Assembly (NCBI GenBank): GCA_965116475.1
Contig: OZ220691.1
Location: forward strand, 1,472,001-1,536,000
From: Gemmatimonadota bacterium
GTDB taxonomy: Bacteria > Gemmatimonadota > Gemmatimonadetes > Palauibacterales > Palauibacteraceae
Length of the DNA stretch: 64,000 nt
Reading direction: 5' to 3'
The first letter of the stretch is position 1. The number at the start of each line of letters is the position of its first letter. Positions 1-30,459 of this stretch are shown here, in pieces. Below the pieces are notes generated by a model, which saw only the letters and a list, made by a program, of their open reading frames with translations, did no database searches and had not been told where the DNA came from. The position numbers and the translations under genes are program-made.

Positions 1-3000
1 CGCGGAACCTTAGGAGCGGACCGTCCTCGAGCGGGCCCGCCACGACGATCCGGTGCTTCCCGGAAGCGGCGGAGTGGTAGAGTTCGAGACCGGCAGCAGC
101 CTCGACCGCCTCGATTTCGGGACCTTCGAGTTCGAGCAGCACGCCGACGGCGCGGCCGGCCGCCGGCGCCGTCCACTCGACGGTCAGGAACCCGGGACCT
201 CGTGGCGTGGCTGCCGGCATGGGCAACTCGACGGCCTGCGCACCCGGCTCCCGCGCGGCGGCGGGCGGCCCCGCGAGATCGCCGGTGCACGACCAGGCCG
301 TGGCCGCGGCGAGCAACACGGCCAACACCGCTCCGCGCGCGCGGCGGCGCCCGGCACCCGGCCGTCCGCGGCGCCCGTGGGACCGCCGGCGTCCGGCGGC
401 GGCTGCGCCGAGCAGGAAGAACGCCGAGGACGCGGCACCGGGCTCCCCGGGCGTGCTGCCGCAGTCGGCCTCGCCGCTCCGGCAGCGCTCGATCCAGGCC
501 ATCAGATCGCCCAGGTCGTACTCTCCGTTCCGGTTGCCGAGGCGGTCGAGGGCGTCGAGCTGGGCCTCGCTCAGCTCGCGCTCGCCGAACAGCGCCTCGG
601 ACGCCTGCTCCGGCGTCAACCGGTCCACCAGCGCGAGCAGGGCGTCCAGGTCCGCCGCGTCCTGCGCGGCCGCGTCTTGCCCGGCCACGTCTTGCCCGGC
701 CACGTCGCCCGCGGACTGCGGGATCGTGACCCTGACGCTCGGGGTCGCCATCCCGGGCGGGCCGTAGTTGACCGCCTTGTGTCCGATCACCGCCGACGAG
801 GCGGTCGCGTTCTGTGCCACGGTCACGGTCACCTCCTTGTACCTGAACCAGTCCGTTCTCCCGTAGGACACCGAGGCGGGCGACGCCGTGACGCCCGCGC
901 TGTCCGGCTGCGGCTCGATCGCCGCGCCCGCCGGGGGGTGTTGGTTGAGGCGCATGCGGTACGCGCCCGATCCGCCGGGCGCGATCGTGAGCGCCGTCTC
1001 CGACACGACGACCCCGTGCTCGTAGACCGGGTTGCCGCTCAGCCGGAGCTGCCTGAGGTTGGCCAGCTCGTTGATCTCCTCGTACGGAAAGCTCGTCAAC
1101 TGGTTGTCGCGCAGATTGAGTTCCTCGAGCGCCGCCAGCCGGTCGAAGACGCCGGCGCGCAGCGACCGCAGGCGGTTGTCGTCGATGTCGAGTTCCCTGA
1201 GAAGCGCCAGCTGGTCGAAGACGTTCGCGGGCAGCGACGAAAGCCGGTTGCCGTCCAGATCGAGCATGGTCAGCGCGCTCAGGTCGTCGAAGATCCCCGT
1301 CGGCAGCGACGAGATCCGGTTCCCGCTCAGGTCGACCTCCGTCACCGCCGTCAGGCCGTCGAAGTCGCCCGCCTTGAGCGACGCGATGTTCAGGTGGTTC
1401 AGCCAGAGTCCGCCCGAGATGGACGCCAGGTCGTCCGCCGTCACCCCGCCGCAGCCCTTCGAGCCGCCCAGCCACCCCAGGATGGCGTCGCGCACCTGGG
1501 GCGTGCGGCCGCAGATGCCGCCCGACGGCGTCGCCCGCACCTCGCGCGACGACGCTCCCGGGCCGGCCCTGTTGACGGCCCGCACCGCGAAGCGGTACTC
1601 GCGGTCGTTCGCGAGGCCCCCGACCGTGTACGTCTCCATGTTCGCCCCGCCCGCGCCGCTGCCCGGGATGCCGCGCCAGCTTCCGCCGTCCACCCGGTAG
1701 TCGTGGCGCGTCACGGGCGCGCCGCCGTTGTACGGCGGGAACCCCGGGTCGTCGCCCGGCGCGGTCCAGCTCAGCGTCACCTCGCGGCTGCCCGGCACCG
1801 CGGTCAGGTCGACCGGCGCGTCCGGCGCCCTCGCCGTCACCGTGCCGTCGACGATGGTGACGGTGACGGACCCGATCGCGACCGTGCCGTGATGGGCGGC
1901 GATGACGACCGTCTCGTCGTCCTCGGACTCCGAGTCGGACAGCGCGGCGAGCGTGACGCCGCCCGTGGTCGCGCCCGCCGCGATCGTGATGTTCGGCTCC
2001 GACAGCGTGTAGTCGCTGCCGCTGGTCGCCGTCCCGCCCAGCTCCAGCGTGACCGTCTGGACCGTCTCGAAGGTCGAGCCGCTGGTCTGGACCCATAGCC
2101 GCGTCTCCTCGCCCTCCCGCAACGTCGTCACGTTCGTCCTGATCTCGAGGTCGATGTCGTCGTCGGCCACCCTCACCTGCACGCTGCGCGCGGTGACCGA
2201 CCCGTAGTCGCCCCCGCTCACCGCGTGGGACACCGTCGCCTCGTCGGCGTTCTTGTCGACATCCTGCGCCGCGCTCACCGTCACCGGCTGCGCCGTGTCC
2301 CAGTCGCCGGGCGCGAACGTCAGCGTCGGCGGAGACGCCGTCACATCGGAGTCGCCGCTCACCGACACGCCGATCGTCACCGTGGCCGTCGGGCGCGATT
2401 CGAGCGCCACCCTGTAGGTGCCGCTGCCGCCCTCCTCGATCGAGAGCGCCGTCGCCGAGACCGCCACGCCGCGCGTGTCGTCGTCGGTGATCGTCACTGT
2501 CGCGTCCGTCACGGCGAGGCCGGACACCGTGCCGGCGACCGTGACCGTCTCGTCGTCCTCGTCCACGTCGTCGTCCACCGGCGTCAGCGACAGCGTCGCC
2601 GTCCCGCTCGTCGCGCCCGCCTCGATCGTCAGCGTGGCCGTGCCCGCCGTGAAGTCGGACGAAGCCGCCGTGCCCGCGCTCACCGACAGCGACACCGCCC
2701 GATCCGCCGCGAGCGCGGCGCCGTTCAGCGTTCCCGTCACCGACAGCGGCGTCTGACCCTCACCCTCGCCCACCCGCCCGGGCATCACCGTCAGCGTCAC
2801 GCCCGTCGACGGCGTGTCGTCGTCGGTGACGCGTATCTGCACGGAGGCGGCCGTGACGCCGTTGGCACCGTAGTCGCCGCCGCTCACCGTGTGGCTCACC
2901 GTCGCCGTGTCGCCGGCCGCGTCCAGGTCCTGGGCCGCACGCACCGTCACCGTACGCGGCTCATCCCAGTCGCTGGTCGTGAACTCCAGCGACGGCGGGG

Positions 3001-6000
3001 ACACCGTCACGTCCGCATCGCCCGCCACCGAGACGCCCACCGTCACCGTGGCCGTAGGCTGCGACTCGAGCACCACCGTGTAGGTGCCGCTCCCGCCCTC
3101 GTCGAACTCGACCGACGTCTCCGACACCCCCACCCCGCGGGTGTCGTCGTCGGTGATCGTCACCGTCGCGCCCGTGACGGTCAGGCCGCCGGACGCGGTG
3201 CCCGCCACCATGACCGTCTCGTCGTCCTCGTCGACGTCGTCGTCCATGGGCGTCAGCGTCAGCGTCGCCATGCCGCTCGTCTGGCCCGTCACGATCGTCA
3301 GCATCGCCGTGCCCGCCGTGAAGTCCTCCGATGCCGATGCCGTCACCGGGCTCACCGACAGCGCCACCGTCCGGTCCTCCGTGAACGCCCCGCCGTTCAG
3401 CGTGCCGGTGACGCTCAGCGCCGTCTGCCCATCACCCTCGCCCACCTCTGCCGGCGACACCGAAAGCGTCACTCCCGTCGCCGCCATGACATGCCGCGTC
3501 ACGACCACCGTGTAGGTCTTCTGCGTCACCCCGTCCTGGGCCGTCACCCTCACCTTGATCGTGTTCGCGCCCACTTCGAGCGCCACCTGGAACCCGTCCG
3601 CCGCGTCCGCGTCCACGAGCGCCTGGTCGCTGCCGTCGAGGTACGCGACCGTAGCCGAGACATGGCTCTTCACCGCGCTCACCGTGGTCATGGCCACCGA
3701 GTGGGGCGCCGACCCCGTGTAGCTCGTCGAGTCCGGGTGGAACAGGGGCGTGAGCGTCACCCCGCTCAGGTTCAGCCCGCTCAGCCTCGCGTCGTCGGAC
3801 GGCTGCCGCGTCACGACCACGACGTAGGTCTTCTGCGTCACCCCGTCCTGGGCCGTCACCCTGACCCCGATCGTGTTCGCGCCCACTTCGACCGCCACCT
3901 GGAACCCATCCGCCGTACTCGCGTCCGTCAGCGCCTCGTCGCTGGCGTCCACGTACGCGACCGTCGCCGAGGTGTGGCTGGTCGTCGGGTTCACCGTCGT
4001 CAAGGACACCGAGTGGACGACCGTCGACGTGTAGTTCAGCGAATCCGTGTGGAACGTCGGCTCCAGCGTCACGCCGCTCAGCGTCAGCGCGCTCAGGCTC
4101 GCGTCCGTGGACGGGACGCGGTTCATTACCGTCTGAGCGGTGAAGGTGGCCGCGTCGTTGCCGGCCAGGTCCTGCACCGCGTTCGCGTCGTCGCCGGTGG
4201 TCGGGTCCATGTAGCCGACCGTCACCGTCTGGTCGCCCGCCACCGCCGACGCCGGGACCAACAGCACCTCCAGCGCGGCCGGGTGGACACTGGTGACGGT
4301 CCGGGCCGTTCCGGCCACCGTTACCGTGAATGCGCTGGCCGGAGCCGTCGTCGTCTGGGACAACTCTTCGTTGAAGTGGAGGTGGATGCCGATGCCGTCG
4401 GGCGTGGTCCTCGGCGCGTTCGTGCCGCTCGTCACCAGCGTCGGGCGCACGCCGTCCACCCTGTGGGTCGCGTCCGCCGCCACGGCCGCGTGCGCGATGA
4501 AGGCATCGCTCGTCGTCGAGCCCTTCCTCCGGATCGTCCCGCCGTTCAGCTCGAGTTCGTTCGCCGCGATCTCGATGCCGTCGTCGTCGGAGTCGTTCTC
4601 CGCCACCACGTAGCCCTTGAACAGCAGCGCGGTCGTGCCCGTCCCGGAGCTGTAGTCCAGCTGCTTGTCCGACCCGGCGACGTCGATGTCCAGCCGCGGC
4701 GTGCCCGTCACGTCCACGGAGTCGGTGAACGTCACCGTCACCGATACCGTGTCGCCGATCCCGTACGCCCCGTCCGTGCCCGCATCCGACAGCGCCAGCG
4801 AGGCGACCGCCGGCTCGACGTCGTTCCTCACCGTCTGCGCATCGAACGTCGCCGCGTCGTTGCCGGCCAAGTCCTGAATCGCGTTCGCGTCGTCGCCGGC
4901 CGTCGGGTCCATGTAGGCCACCGTCACCGTCTCGCCGGGGGCCACCGCCGACGCCAGGAACAAGATCACTTGAGTATCGGACTGGTCGACAGTCCCGCGG
5001 AGGGTCCGGGGCGTTCCGTCCACCGTCACCGTGAATGCGCTGGCCGGCGCCGCCGTCGGGGACAGATCTTCGCTGAAGTCGAGGTAGAGGCCGCGGCCGC
5101 CGGGCGTGGTCCTCGGCGCGTTCGTGCCGCTCGTCACCAGCGTCGGGCGGATGCCGTCCACCCGCAGGGCCGCATCGATGCCGACCTCGTCGGCCGTGTA
5201 GGTCGTGTCGGCGGCCAGGCCGTTCGGGCCCTCGAGCGTCGCGCCGTTCAGCGTCAGCTTGTTCGCGGCCACGCCGATCGCTCCGGCAATGCCCTCGTCG
5301 ACCGGGTAGCGGCAGGTGAGTTGGGTCCCCGCGGCGATGAGGCAGGTCGCCGTCCTCGTCGAATCGCCGACCGTCAGCTCCAGCCGCGGCGTGCCGCCGG
5401 TCACGTCCAGCGTCAGGTCCTTCGTGAACGTCACCGCCAGGTCGATCGTGTCGGCGATGGCGTAGAGGTCGTCGCTCGGGGCGTCGACTACAGCCACCGA
5501 GGCGACCTCAGGCCCGGGAACCGCGATGAGCTGCACGTCGACCGGCTCGCCGTCCGACCAGGCCAGGCCGGGGTTGTCCCAATCGTGACTTTCTGTCCCC
5601 GTCGCCTCATCGAGGCGAAACTCCGTGCCGTCCAGGGCCAATACTAGGAGGTCGTCGGGCGCGGCGGAGATGCGGGGTGACAGCCAATAGATCAGCTCGT
5701 TGTCGATAACAACATCATTAACGAGCGTTATCGAATGGGCGAGCGCGAAAAGGGCATAGGGCGTTCCTCCATACTCGAACGGGTCGGACCTGGAAAGGCT
5801 GCCGACGACACCGTCCGTGGTTGACTCGTATCCGACAGTGTGTCCAACAAGAGGTCCCGATGTTTCCATGGACGTCCCCACGGTCATTTCGACGGACCAA
5901 AGGACATCGCCCTCCGTGCCCGGCCCCGCGTTGTTCGTGACCGTCTCTGCGGAGAACGTCGCCGCGTCGTTGCCCGCAGCGTCCTGCACCGCGTTCTCGT

Positions 6001-9000
6001 CGTTGCTTCCCGTCGGATCCATGTAGGCGACCGTCACCGTCTCGCCGGTGGCCACCGCGGACGCCAGCACGAGCGTCACCGACGGGCCGGCCGCAACGAC
6101 GCCGCCCGCAAAGACCGAGCTGACGCCGCGCGCCGATCCGTCCACCGTCACCGTGAACGCACTCGTCGGCGCGGTGGTCGCGGACAGCACCTCGCTGAAC
6201 GTCAGCAGCACCTTCTTGCCGTCGCGCGATGTCTTCGGCGCACCGTCGCCCGTCGTCACCAGCGTTGGCGCCACCAAGTCCACCCTGTTCGTCACCGTCT
6301 GCGCGGCAAAGGTCGCCGCGTCGTTACCCGCCGCGTCTTGCACCGCGTTCGCGTCGTCGTTCGCCGTCGGGTCGGCGTAGGCGACCGTCACCGTGTCGCC
6401 GGTGGCCACTGCGGAGGCCAGCGTCAAGGTCACGTCGGTGCCGCTGGCGGAGACCGAGCTGACGCCGCGCGTCGATCCGTTCACGAGCACCGTGAACGCG
6501 CTCGCCGGCGCCGTCGTCGACGACAGCCTCTCGCTGAAGGTGAGGTCGATGATCGCACCGTTGGTCGAGGTGACCGCGCTCACGAACGTCGGGCGCACGC
6601 CGTCCACCCTGTGGGTCGCGTCCGCCGCCACGGCCGCGTGCGTGATGATGGCATTGATCGTCGTCGAGCCCTTCTTCCGGATCGTCCCGCCGTTCAGCTC
6701 GAGTTCGTTCGCCGCGATCTCGATGCCGTCCGTGTCTTCTTCGCTCTCCGCCACCACGTAGCCCTTGAACAGCAGCGCGGTCGTGCCCGTCCCGGAGCTG
6801 TAGTCCAGCGGCTTGTCCGACCCGGCGACGTCGATGTCCAGCCGCGGCACCCCCGCCACGTCCACGGAGTCGGTGAACGTCACCGTCACCGATACCGTGT
6901 CGCCGATCCCGTACGCCCCGTCCGTGCCCGCGTCCGACAGCGCCAGCGAGACGACTTCGGGCCCAACGACGTTCCTCACCGCCTGCGCGTCGAACGTCGC
7001 CGCGTCGTTGCCCGCCGCGTCCTGGACCGCGTTCGCGTCGTCGTTCGCCGTCGGGTCCATGTAGGCCACCGTCACCGTCTCGCCGGTCGTTACCGCCGGC
7101 GACAGAGTGAGAGCTACGGTCCGGTCGATCAGGTTCGCGGCGACGACTTCGACGGTCCTGGGCTGTCCGTCCACCGTCACCGTGAACGCGCTCGCCGGCG
7201 CCGTCGTCGTCGACAGCGTCTCGCTGAAGCGGAGGTCGATGGCCGACCCGCTCGCCGTGGTCTTCGGCGCACCCGTGCCGCTCGTCACCAGCGTCGGGCG
7301 CACGCCGTCCACCCGCAGGTCCGCATCGATGCCGACCTCGTCGGCCGTGTAGGTCGTGTCGGCGCTCAGGTCGTTCGGGCCCACAAGCGTCGCGCCGTTC
7401 AGCGTCAGCTTGTTCGCCGCGACGCCGATCGCGCCCTCTATCCCCTCGTCGACCACATGTCGGCAGGTGAGCTGCGTGCCCGTTGCGGCGGCGCAGGTCG
7501 CCGTCCTCGTCGAGTCGCCGACCGTCAGTTCCAGGCCCGGCGTGCCGCCGGTCACGTCCAGCGTCAGGTCCTTCGTGAACGTCACCGCCAGGTCGATGGT
7601 GTCGGCGATGGCGTAGAGGTCGTCGGTGGGCGCGTCGACTACAGCCACCGAGGCGACCTCCGGCCCTGAAACCGCAATGAGCTTCGCGGCGACCGGCTCG
7701 CCATCCGACCAGGTCAGACCTTGGTTGTCCCATTCGAGCGAACTGACATTCGCATCGTAGATCTGCTTGGCCGACTGATCGACCCGGAACTGTGTGCCGT
7801 CCAGATCCAATACCAGCGGATGATCGGAGGGGGAGGGAAAATGGGGTGTGGTATACAGATACAAAGTGACGCCGAGTCCCACAAACTCCGTCACGTCGAG
7901 CCCTAGAACAGTGTACGTGGTTCCATCGTACATGAAGGCGGCGGATCCAGAAATGCGGCCCACCGCGTCCTCGCCGTCGTACCCAGCCACGTGGTAAGTG
8001 AATCCGGATGAGGAGACCGTGTACGTTCCTACGGTCATGTCGACGGACCAAATGACCTCGCCCTCGGTGCCCGCCCGCGCGTTGTTGGTCACCGTCTGGG
8101 CTGAGAACGTCGCCGCGTCGTTGCCCGCCCGGTCCTGCACAGCGTTCTCGTCGTCGTCGGTGTTCGGATCGGTGTAGCCGATCGTCACCGTCTGGCCGGC
8201 CGTCACGGCCGTCGTCAGCACCAGCGTCACCGGGCCGGCCGTAAGGAAGCCTCCCGCAAAGACCGAGCTGACGCCGCGCGCCGATCCGTCCACCGTCACC
8301 GTGAACGCACTCGTCGGCGCGGTGGTCGCCGACAGCGCCTCGCTGAACGTCAGCAGCACTTTTTTGCCGTCGTTCGATGTCTTCGGCGCACCGTCGCCCG
8401 TCGTCACCAGCGTTGGCGCCACCAAGTCCACCCTGTTCGTCACCGTCTGCGCGGCAAAGGTCGCCGCGTCGTTACCCGCCGCGTCCTGCACCGCGTTCGC
8501 GTCGTCGTTCGCCGTCGGGTCCATGTAGGCGACCGTCACCGTGTCGCCGGTGGCCACTGCGGAGGCCAGCGTCAAGGTCACGTCCGTGCCGCTGGCGGAG
8601 ACCGAGCTGACGCCGCGCGTCGATCCGTTCACGAGCACCGTGAACGAGCTCGCCGGCGCCGTCATCGAGGACAGCAGTTCGCTGAACGTGATGACGATCT
8701 CGGTGCCGTCGGTCGAGGTGGCCGCGCTCACGAACGTCGGACTGGCCTTGTAGCTGACGGAGCGCCGGGTCGGGCTTCCCGCGCGCTCGGAAGGGCTGGA
8801 CCCGGCGCTACCGACGGACCCGGGCGCCTCCGCCTCCATGTCGGTCTGCGCATGCGCGGCGCCCGCGCCCACGAGCAGGGCGACACCCGCCAGCAGGACG
8901 GCCGTCAGGCGGCGGCCCCCGGCCCGCGAACAGGCCGAGCCCGGCCACGGCGGGGCGGGAAGGATCGGGCGGGCGGATGCCGCGCGAGGCCGATGGGCCC

Positions 9001-9037
9001 CCGAATCTTCCTCGGCAGGAAAAACCGCTGGGCTCAT
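1..9037 (-). CDS. Giant repetitive surface/adhesin-like protein (>3000 aa, 3' end outside window): signal peptide, SwmB-like repeats, cadherin-like beta-sandwich x2, Calx-beta-like repeats, fn3, LRR, C-terminal module
   Basis: Manual minus-strand translation from ATG 9037: RRLTAVLLAGVALLVGAGAAHA-QTD signal; repeats TLTLASAVATGDTVTVAYMDPTANDDANAVQDAAGNDAATF; DASLSALTLS...TYVVVVTR; TVTITDDD; LRR LDLDGNRLSSLPANVFDQL. Frame is the same at 9037, 598 and 4. Absence from the ORF track fits no stop inside the window; not every codon was checked. Confidence 0.88.
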   Translation of the reverse strand, partial: MSPAVFPAEEDSGAHRPRAASARPILPAPPWPGSACSRAGGRRLTAVLLAGVALLVGAGAAHAQTDMEAEAPGSVGSAGSSPSERAGSPTRRSVSYKASPTFVSAATSTDGTEIVITFSELLSSMTAPASSFTVLVNGSTRGVSSVSASGTDVTLTLASAVATGDTVTVAYMDPTANDDANAVQDAAGNDAATFAAQTVTNRVDLVAPTLVTTGDGAPKTSNDGKKVLLTFSEALSATTAPTSAFTVTVDGSARGVSSVFAGGFLTAGPVTLVLTTAVTAGQTVTIGYTDPNTDDDENAVQDRAGNDAATFSAQTVTNNARAGTEGEVIWSVDMTVGTYTVSSSGFTYHVAGYDGEDAVGRISGSAAFMYDGTTYTVLGLDVTEFVGLGVTLYLYTTPHFPSPSDHPLVLDLDGTQFRVDQSAKQIYDANVSSLEWDNQGLTWSDGEPVAAKLIAVSGPEVASVAVVDAPTDDLYAIADTIDLAVTFTKDLTLDVTGGTPGLELTVGDSTRTATCAAATGTQLTCRHVVDEGIEGAIGVAANKLTLNGATLVGPNDLSADTTYTADEVGIDADLRVDGVRPTLVTSGTGAPKTTASGSAIDLRFSETLSTTTAPASAFTVTVDGQPRTVEVVAANLIDRTVALTLSPAVTTGETVTVAYMDPTANDDANAVQDAAGNDAATFDAQAVRNVVGPEVVSLALSDAGTDGAYGIGDTVSVTVTFTDSVDVAGVPRLDIDVAGSDKPLDYSSGTGTTALLFKGYVVAESEEDTDGIEIAANELELNGGTIRKKGSTTINAIITHAAVAADATHRVDGVRPTFVSAVTSTNGAIIDLTFSERLSSTTAPASAFTVLVNGSTRGVSSVSASGTDVTLTLASAVATGDTVTVAYADPTANDDANAVQDAAGNDAATFAAQTVTNRVDLVAPTLVTTGDGAPKTSRDGKKVLLTFSEVLSATTAPTSAFTVTVDGSARGVSSVFAGGVVAAGPSVTLVLASAVATGETVTVAYMDPTGSNDENAVQDAAGNDAATFSAETVTNNAGPGTEGDVLWSVEMTVGTSMETSGPLVGHTVGYESTTDGVVGSLSRSDPFEYGGTPYALFALAHSITLVNDVVIDNELIYWLSPRISAAPDDLLVLALDGTEFRLDEATGTESHDWDNPGLAWSDGEPVDVQLIAVPGPEVASVAVVDAPSDDLYAIADTIDLAVTFTKDLTLDVTGGTPRLELTVGDSTRTATCLIAAGTQLTCRYPVDEGIAGAIGVAANKLTLNGATLEGPNGLAADTTYTADEVGIDAALRVDGIRPTLVTSGTNAPRTTPGGRGLYLDFSEDLSPTAAPASAFTVTVDGTPRTLRGTVDQSDTQVILFLASAVAPGETVTVAYMDPTAGDDANAIQDLAGNDAATFDAQTVRNDVEPAVASLALSDAGTDGAYGIGDTVSVTVTFTDSVDVTGTPRLDIDVAGSDKQLDYSSGTGTTALLFKGYVVAENDSDDDGIEIAANELELNGGTIRRKGSTTSDAFIAHAAVAADATHRVDGVRPTLVTSGTNAPRTTPDGIGIHLHFNEELSQTTTAPASAFTVTVAGTARTVTSVHPAALEVLLVPASAVAGDQTVTVGYMDPTTGDDANAVQDLAGNDAATFTAQTVMNRVPSTDASLSALTLSGVTLEPTFHTDSLNYTSTVVHSVSLTTVNPTTSHTSATVAYVDASDEALTDASTADGFQVAVEVGANTIGVRVTAQDGVTQKTYVVVVTRQPSDDARLSGLNLSGVTLTPLFHPDSTSYTGSAPHSVAMTTVSAVKSHVSATVAYLDGSDQALVDADAADGFQVALEVGANTIKVRVTAQDGVTQKTYTVVVTRHVMAATGVTLSVSPAEVGEGDGQTALSVTGTLNGGAFTEDRTVALSVSPVTASASEDFTAGTAMLTIVTGQTSGMATLTLTPMDDDVDEDDETVMVAGTASGGLTVTGATVTITDDDTRGVGVSETSVEFDEGGSGTYTVVLESQPTATVTVGVSVAGDADVTVSPPSLEFTTSDWDEPRTVTVRAAQDLDAAGDTATVSHTVSGGDYGANGVTAASVQIRVTDDDTPSTGVTLTVMPGRVGEGEGQTPLSVTGTLNGAALAADRAVSLSVSAGTAASSDFTAGTATLTIEAGATSGTATLSLTPVDDDVDEDDETVTVAGTVSGLAVTDATVTITDDDTRGVAVSATALSIEEGGSGTYRVALESRPTATVTIGVSVSGDSDVTASPPTLTFAPGDWDTAQPVTVSAAQDVDKNADEATVSHAVSGGDYGSVTARSVQVRVADDDIDLEIRTNVTTLREGEETRLWVQTSGSTFETVQTVTLELGGTATSGSDYTLSEPNITIAAGATTGGVTLAALSDSESEDDETVVIAAHHGTVAIGSVTVTIVDGTVTARAPDAPVDLTAVPGSREVTLSWTAPGDDPGFPPYNGGAPVTRHDYRVDGGSWRGIPGSGAGGANMETYTVGGLANDREYRFAVRAVNRAGPGASSREVRATPSGGICGRTPQVRDAILGWLGGSKGCGGVTADDLASISGGLWLNHLNIASLKAGDFDGLTAVTEVDLSGNRISSLPTGIFDDLSALTMLDLDGNRLSSLPANVFDQLALLRELDIDDNRLRSLRAGVFDRLAALEELNLRDNQLTSFPYEEINELANLRQLRLSGNPVYEHGVVVSETALTIAPGGSGAYRMRLNQHPPAGAAIEPQPDSAGVTASPASVSYGRTDWFRYKEVTVTVAQNATASSAVIGHKAVNYGPPGMATPSVRVTIPQSAGDVAGQDVAGQDAAAQDAADLDALLALVDRLTPEQASEALFGERELSEAQLDALDRLGNRNGEYDLGDLMAWIERCRSGEADCGSTPGEPGAASSAFFLLGAAAAGRRRSHGRRGRPGAGRRRARGAVLAVLLAAATAWSCTGDLAGPPAAAREPGAQAVELPMPAATPRGPGFLTVEWTAPAAGRAVGVLLELEGPEIEAVEAAAGLELYHSAASGKHRIVVAGPLEDGPLLRFR
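4130..8660. repeat. ~2.15-kb internal tandem duplication within the surface protein gene
   Basis: Near-identical blocks at offset 2148-2151: 4441 vs 6589, 5143 vs 7294, ~6107-6510 vs ~8256-8660. Boundaries approximate. Confidence 0.85.
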
Positions 9038-9097
9038 CTCTCGTATGTGGGAATCGTTGTCCGACATGCGCGGCCCTCACGCTGCGAATTGGATTGT

Positions 9098-9124
9098 GGT
9101 CGATAACTGGTAGTTATCAACCGC
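9098..9124 (+). other. Putative tyrosine-recombinase site (left), lox-like
   Basis: GGTCGATAACTGGTAGTTATCAACCGC: dyad arms GGTCGATAA/TTATCAACC around an asymmetric CTGGTAG core; exact reverse complement of 10255-10281. Confidence 0.8.
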
Positions 9125-9226
9125 AACCCGGTCGCACTTATCGCCTTGTTCCAGAGTCACTTATGCAGATTGCGGCACCGGAAAACAGTGAGCGGTCACA
9201 ACCGCCCGGCCACTGGGCGGTCACGC

Positions 9227-10186
9227 ATGGATGAGCGCCGGTGCGGGGATCCGGAGGCCGCCGCCGGCCTCCTCGGCGAGTACCTGGCCGCCGCCGCCGA
9301 CGGCTCGCTGAGCGGCAACACCGTGCGGGCGCTGAGGGGGGACCTTCAGCGGTTCGCGGCGTGGTGCGCGGAACGGGATCTCTGTCCGCTGCCCGCGCGC
9401 GCGGGGACGGTCGTGGCCTACATCGAAGAGGTGTCGGGCGACCGCGCGCCCGCCACCGTGAGGCGCCATGTCTCGAGCATCGCCGCCGTGCACAAGGCGG
9501 CCGGGGAGCGGAGCCCGTCGGAGCATGCCGCGGTGCGGCGCGCCCTCGCGCGGATGCGGCGGCGGAAGGGGTCCCGGCAGACGCAGGCGCTGGGCCTGAC
9601 CTGGACGCTCCGCCGGCGCCTGATCGAGGGCGGGGGCTCCCGACTCATCGACGTCCGCAACCGCGCGATCCTGGCCGTGGCCTACGACGCCATGCTGCGC
9701 CGCTCCGAGCTCGTCGCGCTCGAAGTCGTTGACGTGAAGGTGGATAGGGGAGGATCGGCCTCCGTCCTCGTGCGCCGGGCGAAGAACGATCCGGAGGGCG
9801 GCGGGGCGGTGCTGTACCTACACCGCGACACCGTGAGGATGCTCAGGGAGTGGCTCGGCGCGAGCGGGGTCGGCAACGGGCCGCTCTTCCGCGCCGTGCG
9901 CAAGGACGGGCGCGTCGGCGCGGCTCTCCATCCGGGCCAGGTGCCGCGCATCTACAAGGCCATGGCCCGGCGCGCCGGGCTTCCGCCGGAGGTGGTGCGC
10001 CGGCTCTCCGGGCACAGCCCGCGGGTAGGCGCGGCGCAGGACATGATCGCCTCGGGCATCGAGCTGCCGGCGATCATGCAGGCCGGGCGCTGGAGGAACG
10101 TCCGCATGGTCCAGCGCTACGGCGAGCGCCTGCTCGCGAAGCGCAACGGAGCCGCCCAGCTGGCCCGGCTCCAGAAGCGCCGCTAG
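9227..10186 (+). CDS. Cre-like tyrosine recombinase
   Basis: Catalytic set present: MLRRSEL (R), RAKND (K), HSPRVGAAQDM (HxxR; Cre has HSARVGAARDM), GRW (W), VQRY (Y); N-terminal core-binding region. ATG 9227 preferred over TTG 9146. Confidence 0.93.
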   Translation: MDERRCGDPEAAAGLLGEYLAAAADGSLSGNTVRALRGDLQRFAAWCAERDLCPLPARAGTVVAYIEEVSGDRAPATVRRHVSSIAAVHKAAGERSPSEHAAVRRALARMRRRKGSRQTQALGLTWTLRRRLIEGGGSRLIDVRNRAILAVAYDAMLRRSELVALEVVDVKVDRGGSASVLVRRAKNDPEGGGAVLYLHRDTVRMLREWLGASGVGNGPLFRAVRKDGRVGAALHPGQVPRIYKAMARRAGLPPEVVRRLSGHSPRVGAAQDMIASGIELPAIMQAGRWRNVRMVQRYGERLLAKRNGAAQLARLQKRR

Positions 10187-10254
10187 AGATACGCCGGGCA
10201 CGGATATTTTGGACGGATGACTCCGGCGGGTTATCGTTGCCACCGGGTACGATA

Positions 10255-10281
10255 GCGGTTGATAACTACCAGTTATCGACC
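10255..10281 (-). other. Putative tyrosine-recombinase site (right), inverted relative to the left site
   Basis: GCGGTTGATAACTACCAGTTATCGACC, 27/27 inverted match to 9098-9124. Confidence 0.8.
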
Positions 10282-10435
10282 TCTATTTTTTCAAGATACG
10301 CGCTATTTAGTGAGCGGACTGTGACCCAGCGGACGGAGCTCGTGGCCCGTTCGTGACTTTTGCCGCAAATCGCGCTATCCTCGACTCCCCCCGGTCCGGC
10401 GAACCCTCGCCCGACCGACCGGCCGGAGCCTGGCT

Positions 10436-12823
10436 TTGCGGCTCCGCCTCACCTCTTGGCAAGCGAGTGGAGCCTTGGGCGATCCGGACCCTGCGGCACG
10501 CGATGGCGGAGCGTCCTGGGACCGCGCATCGCGGCTGAGCGCGGCGATTCTGCGCATCAGCCGGAGCCTCGACCTGGGCACCGTGCTCGAGGAGGTGGTC
10601 GAGAGCGCGCGGACTCTCACGGGAGCCCGCATCGGCGTGATCACGATGATCGACTCCTCGGGCCGGGTCGAGGACTTCGTCATCTCCGGCCCGGCGCCGG
10701 AGGAGCGCCGGAAGATGGTGGAGTGGCCCGACGGGCCGCGGCTGTTCGCACTCCTTCGCGACCTTCCGGGGCCGGTGCGGGTGGCGGAGGTGGACGACTA
10801 CCTGCGCGCGCTCGGCCTGTCGCCGAACCCCTGGGGCTCGAAGACGATGCAGGCCACACCGATGCACCGGCACGGCGAGCACCTGGGAAGCTTCTTTCTG
10901 GCCGACAAGGAGGACGGGCAGGCGTTCACGAGCGCCGACGAGGAGATCCTGGTGCTGTTCGCCTCGCAGGCCGCCGCGGCGATCGCGAACGCACGGACGC
11001 ACCGCGGCGTCGCGCGGGCGCGGGCCGACCTCGAGGCCCTGGTCGAGACGTCGCCGGTGGGCGTGCTGGTGTTCGAGGCCGGCACCGGCCGCATGATGTC
11101 GGTCAACCGCGCGGCCGAGCGCATCGTCGAGCCGATCCGCACTCCGGGCTCTCCCCCGGAGCAGCTGCTGGGGGTGTTGACGTGCCGGCGTGCCGACGGG
11201 CGGGAGTTCTCGCTGGCGAAACTCCCCATCGCCCGGCAGTTCGAGATCGACGGCGCCTCGCCGGTGCGCGCCGAGGAGGTCGAGCTGTCGGTGCCGGACG
11301 GGCGGAGCGTGCGGACGCTCCTCAACGCGACCCCGATCGTATCGGAGTCCGGCGAGCTCGTCTCGATCGTCGTCACCATGCAGGACCTCGAGCCGCTCGA
11401 GGAGCTGGAGCGGCAGCGGGCCGAGTTCCTCGGCATGGTGAGCCATGAGCTGCGCGCGCCGCTCACCTCGATCAAGGGCTCGGCCGCGACCGTGCTCGAC
11501 GCCGAGCCGCTCCCCTCGCAGGCCGAGATGGTGCAGTTCTTCCGCATCATCGGCGGGCAGGCCGACCACATGAGGGGCCTGATCGCGGATCTGCTGGACG
11601 CGGGGAGCATCGCGGCGGGCACGCTCACCGTGCAGCCCGAGCCCTCGCACGTCGGCACGCTGCTGGACCGGGCCCGCAACACGTTCCTGAGCGGCGGAGG
11701 CCGGCAGGCCGTCCTGATCGACCTGCCGCCCGACCTGCCGCCGGCGATGGCCGACCGCGAGCGCTTCGTGCAGGTCTTGAACAACCTGCTGTCCAACGCC
11801 GCCCGGCACTCGCCTCCGACGTCGGAGATCCGCATCGAGGCCTCGCGCGAGGGCACCTGCGTCGCGGTCTCGGTCTCCGACCAGGGCCGGGGGATCCCGC
11901 CCGACCGGATTCCGCACCTCTTCCGCAAGCGCGCCAGCCCGACGGAAGGCACCGGGCTCGGCCTCGCCATCTGCAAGGGACTCGTCGAGGCGCACGGCGG
12001 CCGCATCCGCGCCGAGAGCGGCGGGAGGGGCCGGGGCGCCCGCTTCACGTTCACGCTTCCCGCGGCCACCGACGCCCCGCCCGAGACGGGCGCGGACGCC
12101 GAGCCGCCCCACCGGCAGGGGTGCAAGACGCGCATCCTGGTGGTGGACGACGACCCGCACACGCTGCGCTACGTGCGCGACACGCTCTCCGACGCCGGCT
12201 ACGCCCCGGTCGTGACCGGCGAGCCGGACGAGATCTCGCGCATCATCCGCGCCGAGCGGCCCGACCTCGTGCTGCTCGACCTCATCCTCCCCGAAACCGA
12301 CGGAATCGAGTTGATGAACAACGTCCCCGCGCTCGCCGACCTCCCGGTCATCTTCATCTCCGGCTACGGCCGCGACGAGACGATCGCCAGGGCGCTCGCG
12401 AGCGGCGCCGCCGACTACATCGTCAAGCCGTTCTCGCCGACCGAACTCGTCGCCCGCGTACAGGCGGCGCTCCGCGCCCGCGCACGGCCCGAGACCTTCG
12501 CGCACGGACAACTGGTCGTCGACTACGGCCAGCGCCGCGTGAGCGTGGCCGGCCGCGAGGTCAGGCTCACCGCCAACGAGTTCGAACTGCTGCGCGTCCT
12601 GTCGGCCGGCGGCGGACGGCTCGTGACCACCGAGGCGCTGCTGCGGCAGGTGTGGGGACGCCGGGGCTCCGACGACACCGACCGCGTCCGCACCGCCATC
12701 AAGAAGCTCCGCCGCAAGCTCGGCGACCGCGCGGCCGAACCGGCCTACATCTTCAACGAGCGCGGCGTCGGCTACCGCTTCGCGAGGCCGGGACCGGTCG
12801 CATCCGCCGGGCATCCGCTTTAA
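10436..12823 (+). CDS. Hybrid sensor kinase/regulator GAF-PAS-HisKA-HATPase-REC-OmpR wHTH
   Basis: VSHELRAPLTSI H-box, NLLSNAARH N-box, GTGLGLAI G2 box, ILVVDDD/LLDL receiver, IFNERGVGYRF wHTH end. Start uncertain. Confidence 0.92.
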   Translation: MRLRLTSWQASGALGDPDPAARDGGASWDRASRLSAAILRISRSLDLGTVLEEVVESARTLTGARIGVITMIDSSGRVEDFVISGPAPEERRKMVEWPDGPRLFALLRDLPGPVRVAEVDDYLRALGLSPNPWGSKTMQATPMHRHGEHLGSFFLADKEDGQAFTSADEEILVLFASQAAAAIANARTHRGVARARADLEALVETSPVGVLVFEAGTGRMMSVNRAAERIVEPIRTPGSPPEQLLGVLTCRRADGREFSLAKLPIARQFEIDGASPVRAEEVELSVPDGRSVRTLLNATPIVSESGELVSIVVTMQDLEPLEELERQRAEFLGMVSHELRAPLTSIKGSAATVLDAEPLPSQAEMVQFFRIIGGQADHMRGLIADLLDAGSIAAGTLTVQPEPSHVGTLLDRARNTFLSGGGRQAVLIDLPPDLPPAMADRERFVQVLNNLLSNAARHSPPTSEIRIEASREGTCVAVSVSDQGRGIPPDRIPHLFRKRASPTEGTGLGLAICKGLVEAHGGRIRAESGGRGRGARFTFTLPAATDAPPETGADAEPPHRQGCKTRILVVDDDPHTLRYVRDTLSDAGYAPVVTGEPDEISRIIRAERPDLVLLDLILPETDGIELMNNVPALADLPVIFISGYGRDETIARALASGAADYIVKPFSPTELVARVQAALRARARPETFAHGQLVVDYGQRRVSVAGREVRLTANEFELLRVLSAGGGRLVTTEALLRQVWGRRGSDDTDRVRTAIKKLRRKLGDRAAEPAYIFNERGVGYRFARPGPVASAGHPL

Positions 12824-12828: not shown

Positions 12829-15800
12829 CTATCGCTCCCACGCCGCCAGGTTCGGGATTCCGCGGCTCCAGTAGATTTCCAGGGAGCCGCCGGCCGAGAG
12901 GGCCGGGCGCTCGGGAAGGCCGCGCAGGAATGCCCTCACCTGCCCGCTCCGGACGTCCCGCACGATCGCCATCGGGGTGTCCGTCTCTCCGTCCAGCGTG
13001 ACCGATCCGCCAGGTGCCGTCAGCGTGATGCTCGCAAGCGAAGCGGCCCACGCGGGCTCGGCCGGGAGGACGAAGGCGAAATGGGCGTCCCCCGCCCCGT
13101 GGGCGATCTCCTCCATGCCGAACGAGAACGAGAACAGCTGGACACCCGCCGCGTCCTTCTCCGGTCAACGTGTAGGGGCCGGGCACAGGCGGTCCCGAGG
13201 GCGGAGCATCGACAACGAAGGCGGGTTCCAGGAAAGGCACCCCCTCGGCATCGATACCACCCCAGAGAAGGGTCCCGGGGCCTGCGGCAAACCGGCTCGC
13301 GGACCCGGCGTCTGCCTCGGTCGCCCGGTAGCGGAACATCTTGGTGAAGAAGTAGTCGCTGATCCATCGGGGGCGGCAGTAGCTCATGACATCCTTGGTG
13401 GAGGGACTGACGAGCCCGCTGGCGCGATGGTCATATCCCCACGCCCCTATGCTCCCCTCCGGATCCGGGAAGAAGGGGTCCGTGCGGGGAGTATTGCAGC
13501 CCGGAGAGTGGCGGCTGTTGAGGTTGTGACCCAGTTCATGCGCGACCACCGAGGCGGAAAGGGACACGGCGCTCTCCTTGCCTCCTACATAGGCGGCGCC
13601 GGCGGGCCCGGAAACCTGTCCGCTCATCAAACCCATCCAGTACCCGGACCCGTTCTCCAGCGTCCGGATTGCGCGCACCTCCCTGGCGAGTTCAACGCGA
13701 TGGTTCGAAGAAGTCTCGACCGGCTCGTGCTGCGACACGTTCAGTCCGTTTACCGGCAGCAGGTCGTATGCGTGCTGGAGTACCTGGTGTTCTTCCTCCT
13801 CTTCCGCCATCTCCCCGATCCACGCGAGCACGGCGGAGTCCGGGTGCTCCTCCCAGAGGAAGGGGATGAGCGTCAGGTCGAACGCAGGCATGGAGTCCAC
13901 GTCGACCTTGAGCCGGCCCTCCTCGGGAATCCGCTTCCTGGCGAGCAGGCCCTCGTCCAGCGTGTCCTCCGGATCGATCTCGATCACCATCTCGAGTCCG
14001 GGGCGCACGACCGTATGCGGGATGGACGCATTGGAGGACTTGTCGAGCGAACCCTCGTCCACCTCCGTCGGGATGGCGACGGACTTGCCGGGAATCGTCA
14101 CGTTGTACGTCTCCGACCCGTTCCGATAGAAACGCGCCACCACCGCCGGAATCCCCTCGTCGGTCATCCTGGTGCCGGTCACGAAGACCCGCAGCAGCGC
14201 CTCCCTGTCGGAGACCAGGGGGACCGGAAAGTCCCGCGACTGGATGGATTGGACCAGATAGGCGCCGGAGGTATCACGCCCGCAGATCTTCACCCGGCTG
14301 GCAGGGAGCCGCGCCAACCAGTCCAGGAACGTGGGATCGTCGGGAGCGCAGAGTCCCGTTCCGCTGGCGACGATACTCTCCACATTCTCCAGACGGGTGA
14401 AGCTCATGGGAATGGGGCCGGTCAGCTTCGGGTTGTTCCCGACCTGCAGTCCCTGCAGCTGATCCAGGCCGGCGAATTCCGCGGGGAGAGCCCCGGAAAA
14501 GTCGTTTCCGAACAAGTGGAGAATCCTCAACTCGGAGAGATTGCCCAGTTCGGGCGGCAGGGAGCCGCTCAGGTCGTTGTTTGTCGCGCGGAATTCTTCA
14601 AGCTGCGCGAGATTGCCCAGTTCGGGCGGCAGGGAGCCGCTCAAGTCGTTGTTCTCAACGCGGAATTCTTCAAGCTGCGGGAGCTGGCCCAGTTCGCCCG
14701 GAATCGAGCCTGTCAACCTGTTGTCGTAGAGCAAAACGAACCTGAGTTCGGGCAGGCCGCCCAGTTCCCCGGGGATGGGCCCGGTCAGCTGGTTGCCGGA
14801 GAGCGAGAGGCGCCAAAGTTCGGGCAGGTTGCCCAGCTCCCGGGGGATCGACCCGGTCAGTTGGTTGTCGGAAATGTGGAGGGCCCGGAGGCTGCGCAGG
14901 TCGCCCAGTTCGGGCGGGATGATGCCGGTGAGCGCGTTGCCGTTCAGGTACAGATCGGACAGGCTCGCCAGTTTACCCAGTTCCGGAGGTATGGGGCCGC
15001 TCAGGTCGTTAAACCGCAGGTACAGGGACCACAGTTCCGGAAAGTTGCTCAGTTCGGGCGGGATCGTGCCGGTGAGATTGTTCTGGCTGAGATCGAGGGT
15101 ATGCCACAGATTCGTGAGCTTGCCCAGTTCGGACGGGATCGTACCGGTAAGCCTGTTGTTCGAGAGATTGAGGGAAATCAGATTCGTCAGCTCGCCCAGT
15201 TCCGGGGGAATGGGGCCACTCATGCTGTTGACATTCAGCCAAAGGAGTTCGAGTCCGGACAGGTCGGCCAGTTCGGGCGGAATGCGTCCCGTCAGGCCGA
15301 TATTCGAAAGGCGCAGGCGCCTGAGGTTCGACAGCTTGAGGAGGCTCGGCGGAAAGGGCCCCTCCAGATCGTTAATTCCCAGGGCGAGTTCCTCGAGGCT
15401 GGACAACTCTCCCAGTTCGGGCGGAATCATCCCCTTGAGATCGTTGTAAGTCAGCGACAGGGAGATCACGCGTCCCCGGTCGTTCACTTCGACCCCGTAC
15501 CACTCGGCCAGGGGCGCCTCCGTCAGCCAACCGCTGTTGTCCTTCCAGTTCGGTCCATCGGTCGCATTGTACAGTGTCCGCAGGATCTCACGATCCGCAT
15601 CCGCTTCCAGCGTCACGGTGATTGCGGCCGCTCCCGAAACGGTGCCGGCGGATGCCGTGACCGTTGCCGTGCCCTCGCCTGTGGCGCGGACGAGTCCCGA
15701 GGAGTCCACCTCGGCCACGGCCTCGTCGTCCGACCGCCAGGCGACGGAGACTCCGGTCATCGGTTGCCCCCTCTGGTCCCGCACTTCCACGCTGAGCTGC

Positions 15801-30433: not shown

Positions 30434-30459
30434 CGTCTCCTCTCCGTGGTCAGGATTGC

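Follow-up and report, generated by a model that had tools for sequence, protein, structure and literature searches.

A Cre-type recombinase cassette enclosed by its own inverted sites: a probable DNA-inversion switch between a giant adhesin and a sensor kinase of marine symbionts

A 1.18-kb cassette in the window (the whole 64-kb stretch of DNA analysed here) very probably constitutes a DNA-inversion switch, of a kind undescribed in these marine symbionts. The cassette consists of a Cre-type recombinase gene enclosed by two inverted copies of its likely sites, and lies between a gene for a giant surface protein and one for a hybrid sensor kinase. We have high confidence that it is truly invertible by its own recombinase. 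Taken as a whole, the material is best explained, by a modest preference, by a self-contained invertible cassette that acts as a promoter-inversion switch. A redirection of promoter activity between kinase and adhesin is a more tentative part of this account, with chances slightly below even. The most likely form of the system is a Hin-like promoter-inversion switch built on a Cre-type enzyme, with a putative regulatory output. For the window's own copy we infer the flipping, the locations of the promoters, and which gene is ON in which state.

The cassette, its sites and its neighbours

The initial annotation of the window was built around a perfect 27-bp inverted repeat, GGTCGATAACTGGTAGTTATCAACCGC, at 9098–9124 (+) and 10255–10281 (−). 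This repeat stands: matches arose in 0 of 100 dinucleotide shuffles, and the 64-kb window holds no further copies at three or fewer mismatches. A repeat search extends the pair to 32 nt at 94% (9093–9124 and 10255–10286), and when the reverse complement of the left flank was compared by eye with the right flank, no homology was found past these 32 nt. The annotation was also right that each copy is a dyad with an asymmetric core. Compared with relatives, each resolves into 13-nt arms, complementary at 11 of 13 positions, around a non-palindromic 7-nt centre (13-7-13; Table 1). The ATAA-N6-TTAT look of the site is a mere resemblance to Xer/dif. The right site is followed by TCTATTTTTT, and the dyad plus this T-run scored as terminator-like; the T-run is not kept in relatives, so a terminator was dropped as a general feature.

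A single credible gene lies between the repeats, and the two flanking open reading frames both face away from them, as had been proposed. The distance from the right site to the kinase, put at about 150 bp, is 154 bp to the start of the open reading frame. The left-hand distance had to be corrected from 60 to 30 bp, since the first ATG of the adhesin is at 9067 and the repeat begins at 9098; 60 bp corresponds to the second in-frame Met, at codon 11.

Table 1. Features of the cassette and its surroundings, in window coordinates.
Feature	Position	Strand	Basis and details
Giant secreted/surface repeat protein ('adhesin'), >3022 aa, continuing beyond the window	2..9067	−	ORF, Pfam; start codon 30 bp outside the perfect repeat
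Likely left recombination site	9094..9126	+	Outer arm 9094–9106 (TTGTGGTCGATAA), centre CTGGTAG 9107–9113, inner arm 9114–9126 (TTATCAACCGCAA); perfect repeat 9098–9124
Recombinase leader	9127..9226	+	Alignment: conserved TTATG and GCCAC-N6-GTCAC motifs; a possible weak promoter
Cre-type tyrosine recombinase gene, 319 aa (P0001)	9227..10186	+	Pfam, phmmer against PDB, catalytic residues
Candidate outward-facing promoter inside the cassette	10209..10237	+	TTGGAC, 17 nt, TATCGT; lies 15 nt before the right site
Likely right recombination site, inverted copy of the left	10253..10285	−	Inner arm 10253–10265, centre CTACCAG 10266–10272, outer arm 10273–10285; perfect repeat 10255–10281
Kinase-regulator leader, conserved	10286..10435	+	Two 11-bp-phased direct-repeat pairs: GTGAGCGGACTGTGAC (10310–10325) and GTGGCCCGTTCGTGAC (10342–10357)
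Hybrid one-polypeptide two-component protein, 795 aa	10436..12823	+	GAF, PAS, HisKA, HATPase_c, receiver and OmpR-type winged helix (Pfam, NCBIfam)

The enclosed gene encodes an N-terminal SAM-like core-binding domain and a C-terminal catalytic domain, matched by Pfam models PF02899 (23.6 bits, cut-off 22.3) and PF00589 (56.8 bits, cut-off 27.1). A phmmer search against PDB aligns residues 30–307 with Cre at an E-value of 1e-29, far closer than XerD (5e-05), and R158, K186, H263, R266, W289 and Y298 align with R173, K201, H289, R292, W315 and Y324, which PMC10250229 lists as the catalytic residues of Cre. All six are invariant in 23 homologues. NCBIfam offers no specific family for the protein; its Xer models match below threshold, at 35–45 bits against cut-offs of 220–371. 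Identity to P1 Cre is 31%. The AlphaFold2 model (alignment A1) is poor, with a mean pLDDT of 55.7 and a pTM of 0.38, so that the family assignment depends on the sequence match to Cre. On that match, the identification of the enzyme as a Cre-type tyrosine recombinase is supported, in agreement with the initial annotation.

The adhesin carries SWM_repeat, Cadherin-like, LRR_8, fn3 and Calx-beta domains (Pfam), with a hydrophobic, signal-like stretch at about amino acids 52–74 of its N-terminus. On the other side, the kinase leader is conserved across loci. Its GTGAC-type repeats, phased at 11 bp, recur in reversed orientation in the recombinase leader; the pattern GTGRS-N6-GTGAC has just two matches in the window, both of them in the kinase leader, and 35 of 82 loci match it at these two positions. 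These repeats may be OmpR-type binding sites. Rfam (E ≤ 1) gave no matches over positions 8700–10700.

A conserved module and its inversion among relatives

Relatives of the recombinase, at 57–90% protein identity, are encoded in 127 stretches of the genome collection, and in 75 of the 80 related loci, which come from genomes labelled as four phyla, the same paired inverted sites surround the gene. The layout is regular: a 13-6-13 or 13-7-13 dyad lies 60–130 bp upstream of the gene and its inverted copy 50–300 bp downstream. Centres are 6 nt long in 70 of 76 loci and 7 nt in the remaining 6, which include the window; 19 different centres occur, none of them palindromic (0/76). Moreover, the two arms co-vary: measured on 52 of the 76 left sites, with near-duplicates dropped, 91.1% of cells are complementary, compared with 80.6% in shuffles, none of 500 of which attained the observed 91.1%, and 9 of 13 arm positions change on both sides. 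Conserved across 75 of 80 relatives and co-varying with the recombinase, the repeats are likely the sites of the enzyme that they enclose, as the initial annotation had supposed.

The flanking genes belong to the same arrangement. A homologue of the kinase-regulator (70–89% amino acid identity) is the next gene after the right site at 40 related loci. Of the 43 loci that were scored for its position, the kinase lies on the recombinase-downstream side in 40 and on the flipped side in three, so the state in which the recombinase reads towards the kinase is in the large majority. A divergent upstream gene with surface-repeat domains is present in 47 of the 60 relatives scanned, and a giant surface-repeat gene lies downstream instead in two flipped loci (L028 and L038) and in L058. 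Kinase and adhesin are conserved partners, not chance neighbours. As many as seven cassette loci occur on one contig or in one genome, and the window cassette belongs to a module that recurs in multiple copies, in genomes assigned by label to four phyla.

Inversion of the segment had been proposed from the window alone, with relatives as one place to look for either orientation, and two orthologous pairs now supply both. The cassettes of L038 and L044 are colinear at 92%, with their flanks swapped: the sequence left of the L038 cassette corresponds, as its reverse complement, to that right of the L044 cassette (96.6%), and the L038 right flank to the L044 left flank (88%). Likewise, L028 and L040 share a cassette colinear at 96.6%, with flanks swapped at 92–98.6%. 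At the junctions, the switch points fall inside the dyads, and the outer arms go with the flanks. Opposite-state copies also occur within one genome (L048 and L040, 98.6–99.4% identity), and a one-sided case is provided by L077 and L079, which have one flank in common. Because the orthologous pairs are opposite in orientation, with flanks exchanged exactly at the sites, site-specific inversion has evidently happened in nature, repeatedly and recently; the observed flips are between species-level genomes or paralogues, from which no rate is derivable.

Proposed output and competing explanations

The encoded recombinase would bind all four 13-nt arms, two in each of the identical and oppositely oriented sites, bring the sites together, exchange strands within the 7-nt asymmetric centre, and flip the segment together with its own gene. 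The outer arms would remain with the chromosome and the inner arms would move with the cassette; because the sites are inverted, such a reaction would only invert the segment and never delete it. Transcripts that start at the recombinase promoter, at the candidate outward promoter just inside the right site, or at both, would exit through the 3′ end of the cassette. They would enter the hybrid sensor-kinase/regulator gene in the present, commonest state, and the giant adhesin gene in the inverted state. The ribosome-binding site and start of the adhesin are only about 30 bp outside the site, which would leave the gene no room for a promoter of its own beyond it; in several clades a Shine–Dalgarno-like sequence and ATG are found 27–48 nt outside the site. 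With the module (adhesin 5′ end, cassette and regulator) in several copies per genome, a population may vary the giant surface proteins that it displays.

Redirection of transcription, which the initial annotation also proposed, is at most suggested by the spacing of the genes and by weak promoter-like matches of conserved position. Individual loci mostly score no better than mononucleotide shuffles, and of these matches the conserved position alone is used here. Sigma-70-like matches just inside the right site hold such a position in 27 group-1 and 9 group-2 loci of 76; in 27 of the 76 the best match has a TTG/TGG-type −35 and a −10 that ends 7–16 nt before the site, and in only 7 of 76 does the right-end candidate beat 95% of mononucleotide shuffles (p ≤ 0.05). 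The L002-type clade (about 17 loci) has a GC hairpin and GGTCACAAT only, with no right-end candidate, and the window's TATCGT, taken as a −10, may just as well be part of a recombinase half-site. The recombinase leader has a candidate with a −35, TTATCA, in the inner arm, a 16-nt spacer, and ACTTAT ending at 9141. Its position is conserved in group 1; its score, 7 of 12, is no better than that of shuffles, and none of the candidates in this leader reaches p ≤ 0.05 against them. No minus-strand promoter of conserved position was found there.

Several observations run against a switch of this kind. Orientation is heavily skewed to the forward state (40 loci compared with three), and none of the three flipped loci has a complete kinase, the gene being truncated or fragmentary in each, although those of the unflipped L040 and L044 are truncated too. 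The kinase has its own conserved 150-bp leader with repeat motifs, and thus need not depend on read-through. The sole promoter-like match of the scan, TTGATA-16-CACAAT (9120..9093), faces the adhesin across the left site; TTGATA lies in the inner arm and CACAAT at the outer edge, and since both fall within the extended 32-nt repeat (9093–9124, 94% complementary), inversion would keep the −35 unchanged and the −10 essentially so. Finally, identical sites at several copies per genome mean that recombination between loci may matter, rather than local switching.

Two alternatives accept the inversion and assign it another role, and we consider both quite unlikely. One is that the cassette inverts with an output limited to recombinase and regulator, for example self-limiting expression of the recombinase or its coupling to the OmpR-type regulator, while the adhesin promoter lies across the left site and is unaltered. 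The TTGATA-16-CACAAT match facing the adhesin from within the extended symmetric repeat fits this, as do the GTGAC-type repeats shared by the kinase leader and, in reversed orientation, the recombinase leader, and the overlap of the candidate recombinase promoter with the inner arm. Yet in all clades the extended symmetric arm takes in the AT-rich hexamer outside each arm, and this hexamer may be protein-binding DNA rather than a −10; the placement of cassettes at adhesin 5′ ends, in genomes of four labelled phyla, would also be hard to explain. The other alternative is that the sites recombine mainly between loci, as a genome-wide shufflon or expression-site exchange in which crossovers between copies would change the cassette and regulator that each adhesin gene adjoins, with local flipping as a side reaction. 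Three loci on one 2.7-Mb contig (L002, L014 and L050) are identical in their sites, whose centre is TTGTAG, and three other loci share the centre CTGTAG. Adhesin-side homology between paralogues can stop exactly at the outer arm: L002 and either L004 or L014 are 94–95% identical in the interior and at least 93% on the kinase side, compared with 67% in the outer arm and 27–30% in the adhesin-side flank. Closely related cassettes adjoin conserved adhesin-side leaders of at least three classes, and the single flank common to L077 and L079 points the same way. Set against this exchange, an adhesin-cassette-adhesin or kinase-cassette-kinase arrangement was identified in 0 of 80 loci, every pair of cassettes would also offer direct repeats by which megabase segments would be deleted, and the two clean flips are simple local inversions that keep both flanks.

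Readings that dispense with switching fare worse. One such reading, in which the window copy no longer recombines and its repeats serve just as operators or as a terminator for the recombinase gene and adjacent genes, is very unlikely. In its favour, the right dyad with its T-run looks by score like an intrinsic terminator, there are candidate promoters that overlap the arms, and the forward orientation strongly predominates; against it, the two copies match perfectly over 27 bp, the gene is intact and retains every catalytic residue, very close relatives (cassette identity 96.6–99.4%) differ by inversion, and the T-run is not a conserved feature. A small, selfish, insertion-sequence-like element that uses the tyrosine recombinase as its transposase has, in our estimate, a similarly slight or even smaller chance. 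Its multiple copies (seven loci on one contig), the wide distribution of relatives, and the enclosure of one gene between terminal inverted repeats would all suit a mobile element. However, there is no target-site duplication at the window repeats, whose flanks are ATTGT and TCTAT, and both ends consist of a full two-arm site that contains the crossover centre, an arrangement that leads to inversion and not excision. The gene context is always the same, and homology between copies passes both repeats, into an adhesin leader of about 190 bp on one side and the 150-bp leader and kinase on the other; moreover, ordinary insertion sequences have themselves inserted into the cassette in L028 and L050. 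An insertion sequence or transposon was rejected on the missing target duplication, the conserved context and the homology beyond the repeats. Support is also lacking for a derivation of the paired layout from plasmids or phages: the nearest plasmid relatives (Methylobacterium and Lichenicola, 48% identity) have no flanking inverted dyads, and the phage matches are P1-type Cre at 31%.

Relation to known systems and significance

The proposed promoter-inversion switch most resembles Hin/hix of Salmonella, in which a serine recombinase gene lies inside an inverted segment of about 1 kb bounded by two inverted dyad sites and inversion needs an enhancer and Fis. The hin gene in its usual state faces the downstream gene under control, with a presumed outward promoter at that end. 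The window cassette is alike in its length, its enclosed recombinase gene and its two inverted dyad sites, and in its usual state the gene likewise faces a downstream gene, with a candidate outward promoter at that end. It differs in its Cre-type tyrosine enzyme, in having candidate outputs on both flanks, and in its multiple copies in genomes labelled as four phyla.

In the pdif modules of Acinetobacter plasmids, cargo genes lie between inverted sites on which the host XerC/XerD act in trans, and the inverted lox pairs used in recombinase-mediated cassette exchange prevent deletion while allowing inversion or exchange. Both share with the cassette a gene between two inverted ATAA-N6-TTAT-type dyads. 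Unlike in pdif modules, the cargo is the recombinase itself, which scores far below the cut-offs of the NCBIfam Xer models. In Xer/dif resolution, XerC/D or a lone Xer works on one dif site per replicon. Chromosome-dimer resolution of this kind was ruled out by the paired, inverted sites, the up to seven loci per contig, and the sub-threshold Xer models.

The recombinase genes of fimS and ipuS lie beside an invertible element, a stretch of promoter DNA some hundreds of bp long that bears short repeats. The ipuS element, which with IpuA/IpuB controls the UpaE autotransporter (PMC6083910), and fimS (FimB/FimE) both combine a tyrosine recombinase with a short invertible element at an adhesin 5′ end and an ON/OFF logic. 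In our cassettes, by contrast, the invertible element comprises the complete recombinase gene, bounded by full lox-like dyads as repeats. The recombinase of the Clostridioides difficile cmr switch, RecV, is encoded elsewhere and serves many switches, of which cmr is a small one. The cmr switch lies upstream of the CmrRST signal-transduction operon (10.1101/2021.10.06.463453), a site-specific inversion directly upstream of a two-component-type regulator, as here; the difference is that each of our cassettes has its own recombinase. Closest in enzyme is the Cre-type family, which according to PMC10250229 includes Dre, Vika, Nigri, Panto and the YR series, with sites beside the gene. The two-domain R-K-H-R-W-Y enzyme, the 13-nt arms, GATA next to the spacer and the site beside the gene are all shared with Cre/loxP and this family. 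In contrast to the 34-bp, 13-8-13 loxP, the centre here has 6 or 7 nt rather than 8, two inverted sites surround the gene instead of one nearby, and the system is chromosomal, multi-copy and tied to adhesin and regulator genes, not to phage or plasmid maintenance.

We found no prior description of this system in open-access papers or bioRxiv. Should the cassettes prove to switch, Gemmatimonadota and Acidobacteriota symbionts of marine animals would have their first recognised system of programmed DNA inversion, in an unusually compact design in which the recombinase gene is its own invertible element. Such switches would sit at giant eukaryotic-like surface proteins thought to mediate host contact, and surface variation in uncultured symbionts would be testable directly from existing long-read metagenomes. 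The family also offers at least 19 natural centres and several co-evolved arm variants, candidate orthogonal Cre-like enzyme/site pairs with 6- or 7-nt spacers. A broader picture, unlikely but with a chance worth stating, is a genome-wide network of self-inverting Cre-type 'expression sites', in which each giant adhesin would be gated by its own cassette, adhesins would be exchanged through identical sites, the GAF-PAS regulator would bias the recombinase through the GTGAC repeats in a signal-dependent way, and the module would pass horizontally among co-resident symbionts of four phyla. If this network is real, uncultured marine symbionts would possess programmed surface variation comparable to that of pathogens, built on a library of distinct Cre-like enzyme/site pairs.

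The inverted repeat and its recombinase

The initial annotation had described a perfect 27-bp inverted repeat with dyad copies and an asymmetric core. Our scan recovered this repeat (GGTCGATAACTGGTAGTTATCAACCGC), for which 0 of 100 dinucleotide-preserving shuffles gave a match, and the rest of the 64-kb window holds no further copy with up to three mismatches. A repeat finder lengthens the pair to 32 nt at 94%. Aligned with its relatives, each copy is a dyad of 13-nt arms around the 7-nt centre CTGGTAG, which is non-palindromic and so gives the two copies a defined, opposite polarity. As had also been claimed, the pair encloses the recombinase gene alone, the only credible gene between the repeats.

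The encoded protein has both Pfam domains typical of simple tyrosine recombinases. Searched against the PDB, it hits Cre chains at 1e-29 (residues 30-307) and XerD at only 5e-05. Residues R158, K186, H263, R266, W289 and Y298 align with Cre R173, K201, H289, R292, W315 and Y324 (numbering as in PMC10250229), and none of the six varies among 23 aligned homologues. No specific NCBIfam model was found for this protein, and an AlphaFold model from a shallow alignment was too poor for use (pLDDT 55.7). The enzyme belongs with the Cre-type recombinases; the sites differ from the 13-8-13 layout of that group, with centres of 6 or 7 nt across the cassette family. Homologues of 328 aa use a conserved TTATG, some 60 bp away from the left site, as their start. 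In the clade of the window this ATG is out of frame and the gene starts later, yet TTATG and the GCCAC-N6-GTCAC motifs are retained.

Features of the window
Feature	Position	Strand	Details
27-nt repeat, left copy	9098-9124	+	7-nt centre at 9107-9113
27-nt repeat, right copy	10255-10281	-	7-nt centre at 10266-10272
Cre-type recombinase gene	9227-10186	+	319 aa
Stretch with conserved TTATG and GCCAC-N6-GTCAC motifs	9146-9226		ATG of TTATG (9163) out of frame
Candidate outward promoter	10209-10237		TTGGAC-17-TATCGT, 15 nt from right site
Adhesin ORF	2-9067	-	>3022 aa; SWM, cadherin-like, LRR, fn3, Calx-beta repeats
Hybrid kinase-regulator ORF	10436-12823	+	GAF-PAS-HisKA-HATPase-receiver-OmpR-type DNA-binding domains, single polypeptide
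LRR plus Big_2 surface protein	12829-16588	-	Converges on kinase gene 3' end
LRR plus Big_2 surface protein	16012-19119	-	Converges on kinase gene 3' end
Long ORF	12977-16540	+	No Pfam match; probably antisense shadow
Defence-island-like stretch	28922-38062		
N6/N4 DNA methylase	28922-29998		Within defence-island-like stretch
ResIII/DEAD helicase	30460-33360		Within defence-island-like stretch
SLATT_4 effector-domain protein	35092-36003		Within defence-island-like stretch
IS481-family transposase	37136-38062		Within defence-island-like stretch
NYN and HicB-like genes	44583-46318		Beyond defence-island-like stretch
DUF222/HNH protein	61323-62771		Beyond defence-island-like stretch

A family of cassettes with covarying sites

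A protein search returned 1658 relatives of the recombinase at E<=1e-10, many at 70-90% identity, and a genome scan found 127 stretches encoding relatives, the best 80 of which were analysed (loci L001-L080). Genomes carrying these best 80 of 127 loci are labelled as four phyla: Gemmatimonadota (Candidatus Palauibacter, 'Longimicrobiales'), Acidobacteriota (Vicinamibacterales, Terriglobia, Bryobacterales, Versatilivoraceae), Latescibacterota, and Pseudomonadota (one gammaproteobacterium, Candidatus Foliamicus). Among the same 80, one 2.7-Mb contig carries up to seven loci. The window is syntenic with a contig of Candidatus Palauibacter irciniicola (L001), to which it is 90% identical.

The same paired sites, which the initial annotation had proposed to seek in relatives, are present in 75 of the 80 loci, with a dyad 60-130 bp before the recombinase gene and an inverted copy 50-300 bp after it; one of the other five loci is cut by a contig end, and four have only one site matching the search pattern. 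Paired sites were absent around plasmid relatives (48% identity). Counting the window, the arms are 13 nt throughout, and the centre is 6 nt in 70/76 and 7 nt in six (the window, L001, L011, L016, L019 and L020). Centres comprise 19 different sequences, none of them palindromic (0/76), and in 57/76 the two copies of a pair share at least 90% identity. The 7-nt form (C/TTGGTAG), found in the clade of the window and in L011 and L019, is a natural one-base change of spacer length inside one recombinase family.

Arms vary by clade (GGTCGATAA, CTCTCGATAA and CTCGCGATAA, among others), and within a dyad the two arms change jointly. Measured on 52 of the 76 left sites, with near-duplicates removed, arms are complementary at 91.1% of positions vs 80.6% in shuffles (0/500 reach the observed value), and 9 of the 13 arm positions are altered on both sides. 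Such covariation would be expected of a homodimer binding site co-evolving with its protein.

Some cassettes have additional parts. In group 2, the more distant clade (L059-L080, 57-62% identity), about 300 bp separate the stop codon from the right site, and a solitary third half-site, AGTTATCGCGAGCAAAAA, which may be an accessory recombinase-binding arm, lies inside the cassette about 100 nt past the stop (L063 ~5072-5090, L069 ~5069-5087). In L028 (2461-3953) and L050 (1146-3989), ordinary insertion sequences with a Mutator/IS256-type and an IS66-type transposase interrupt the stretch from the left site to the recombinase gene, enlarging the invertible segment. Upstream in L017 there is a group II intron reverse transcriptase.

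Conserved flanks and natural inversion

In 40 loci a kinase-regulator homologue (61-89% amino acid identity) begins 100-350 bp past the right site, on the same strand as the recombinase; in three (L028, L048, L038) it lies past the left site on the opposite strand, and in the other 37 an adjacent homologue is absent or unscorable. Most loci have a giant ORF as the gene that diverges from the left site. Surface-repeat domains (LRR, fn3, cadherin-like, Calx-beta, SWM, CARDB or Ig-like) were found within the first 580 aa of this diverging gene in 47 of 60 loci scanned; the remaining 13 comprise nine without a match and four others (two transposases inserted into the cassette, a flipped kinase and a peroxidase). 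Loci outside these 60 also have surface-repeat genes.

Homology between copies extends past both repeats. Towards the kinase it takes in a conserved 150-bp leader and the entire kinase gene (L032 and L034, for instance, share 99.7% identity across 3.9 kb). Towards the adhesin it is about 190 bp long and comprises 48 nt, a Shine-Dalgarno-like sequence, the ATG and a conserved 45-aa N-terminal extension, past which adhesin bodies are unrelated. Adhesin-side homology of L002 with L004 or L014 ends at the outer arm itself, and similar cassettes adjoin three or more classes of adhesin-side leader. These comparisons point to a conserved three-part module of adhesin 5' end, cassette and kinase-regulator, in which the left junction would be a past crossover point. 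The ~190-bp leaders of L003, L004, L008, L013-L015, L017, L021 and L023 (~3700-3893, -) are 90-100% identical ahead of unrelated bodies. Their variation has no codon periodicity, so the DNA or RNA itself may be what is conserved; the extension is Arg/Pro-rich and precedes a hydrophobic signal-like segment.

Relatives in either orientation, part of that same check, were found in two pairs of orthologous loci. The cassettes of L038 and L044, from different genomes, are colinear (3837-4980, 92%), but their flanks are swapped and reversed: the reverse complement of the L038 left flank matches the L044 right flank (96.6% over 385 nt), and that of the L038 right flank matches the L044 left flank (88% over 370 nt). 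L028 and L040 likewise have colinear cassettes (96.6%) and swapped flanks (98.6%, 92% and 97%). In junction alignments identity changes partner within the dyad and, where arms differ, the outer arm tracks the flank and the inner arm the cassette, a signature of strand exchange in the site centres. Moreover, L048 and L040 are opposite-state copies in the same genome record (98.6-99.4% identity). L077 and L079 have only one flank in common, reversed, and L058 has a giant repeat protein downstream on the recombinase strand. Because flipped and unflipped partners are very similar, the inversions are recent and independent. L048 is the first 4876 bases of the chromosome-level record OZ250165.1, which begins inside the flipped cassette; this assembly break may reflect orientation heterogeneity.

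Probable mechanism, proposed output and relation to known switches

Site-specific inversion by the encoded recombinase is the best-supported mechanism and very probably the right one, given the enzyme class, the two-arm sites with asymmetric centres, their inverted orientation and the natural flips. That the sites are fossils, now serving only as operators, is improbable, as is a selfish mobile cassette. Target-site duplication around the window repeats is absent, which, with the homology past both repeats, argues against an insertion sequence. Exchange between loci via identical sites, and an output confined to recombinase and regulator, are each unlikely; both could hold alongside inversion and concern only its purpose.

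In several clades only 27-48 nt separate the site from the adhesin ribosome-binding site and start codon, so the adhesin transcript would have to begin in or behind the site; in the window the first ATG is 30 bp from the perfect repeat, not 60 bp as initially annotated. A sigma-70-like candidate outward promoter occupies a conserved position just inside the right site. In L026, L041 and L056 it reads TTGAC(C/T)-16-TATCTT; group 2 loci have TTGCGG-17/18-TAGAAT or TTGACG-17-TACAAT at a distance of 26-32 nt. Among 76 loci this candidate ranks as best match in 27 + 9 and exceeds 95% of shuffles in only 7; one clade of about 17 loci lacks it. A candidate recombinase promoter overlaps the inner arm of the left site, which would allow autoregulation, and no leftward promoter of conserved position was found in the recombinase leader. 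These features fit a tentatively proposed Hin-like arrangement: outward transcription from the 3' side of the cassette would supply the regulator gene in the common orientation and, once the segment has flipped, the adhesin gene.

The kinase leader also contains two pairs of 11-bp-phased direct repeats, GTGRS-N6-GTGAC, with no other matches in the 64 kb and with matches at the same positions in 35/82 loci. They look like binding sites of an OmpR-type domain and, with related reversed motifs in the recombinase leader, suggest that the sensor-regulator may feed back on itself and perhaps also on the recombinase.

The cassette is functionally akin to the Hin segment and to the fimS and ipuS/UpaE tyrosine-recombinase adhesin switches. 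Three features set it apart from all examples known to us: a Cre-type gene lies between full sites of its own, the module occurs in multiple copies, and it is linked with giant surface proteins and with a hybrid sensor-regulator. A search of open-access papers and bioRxiv found no published description of the system.
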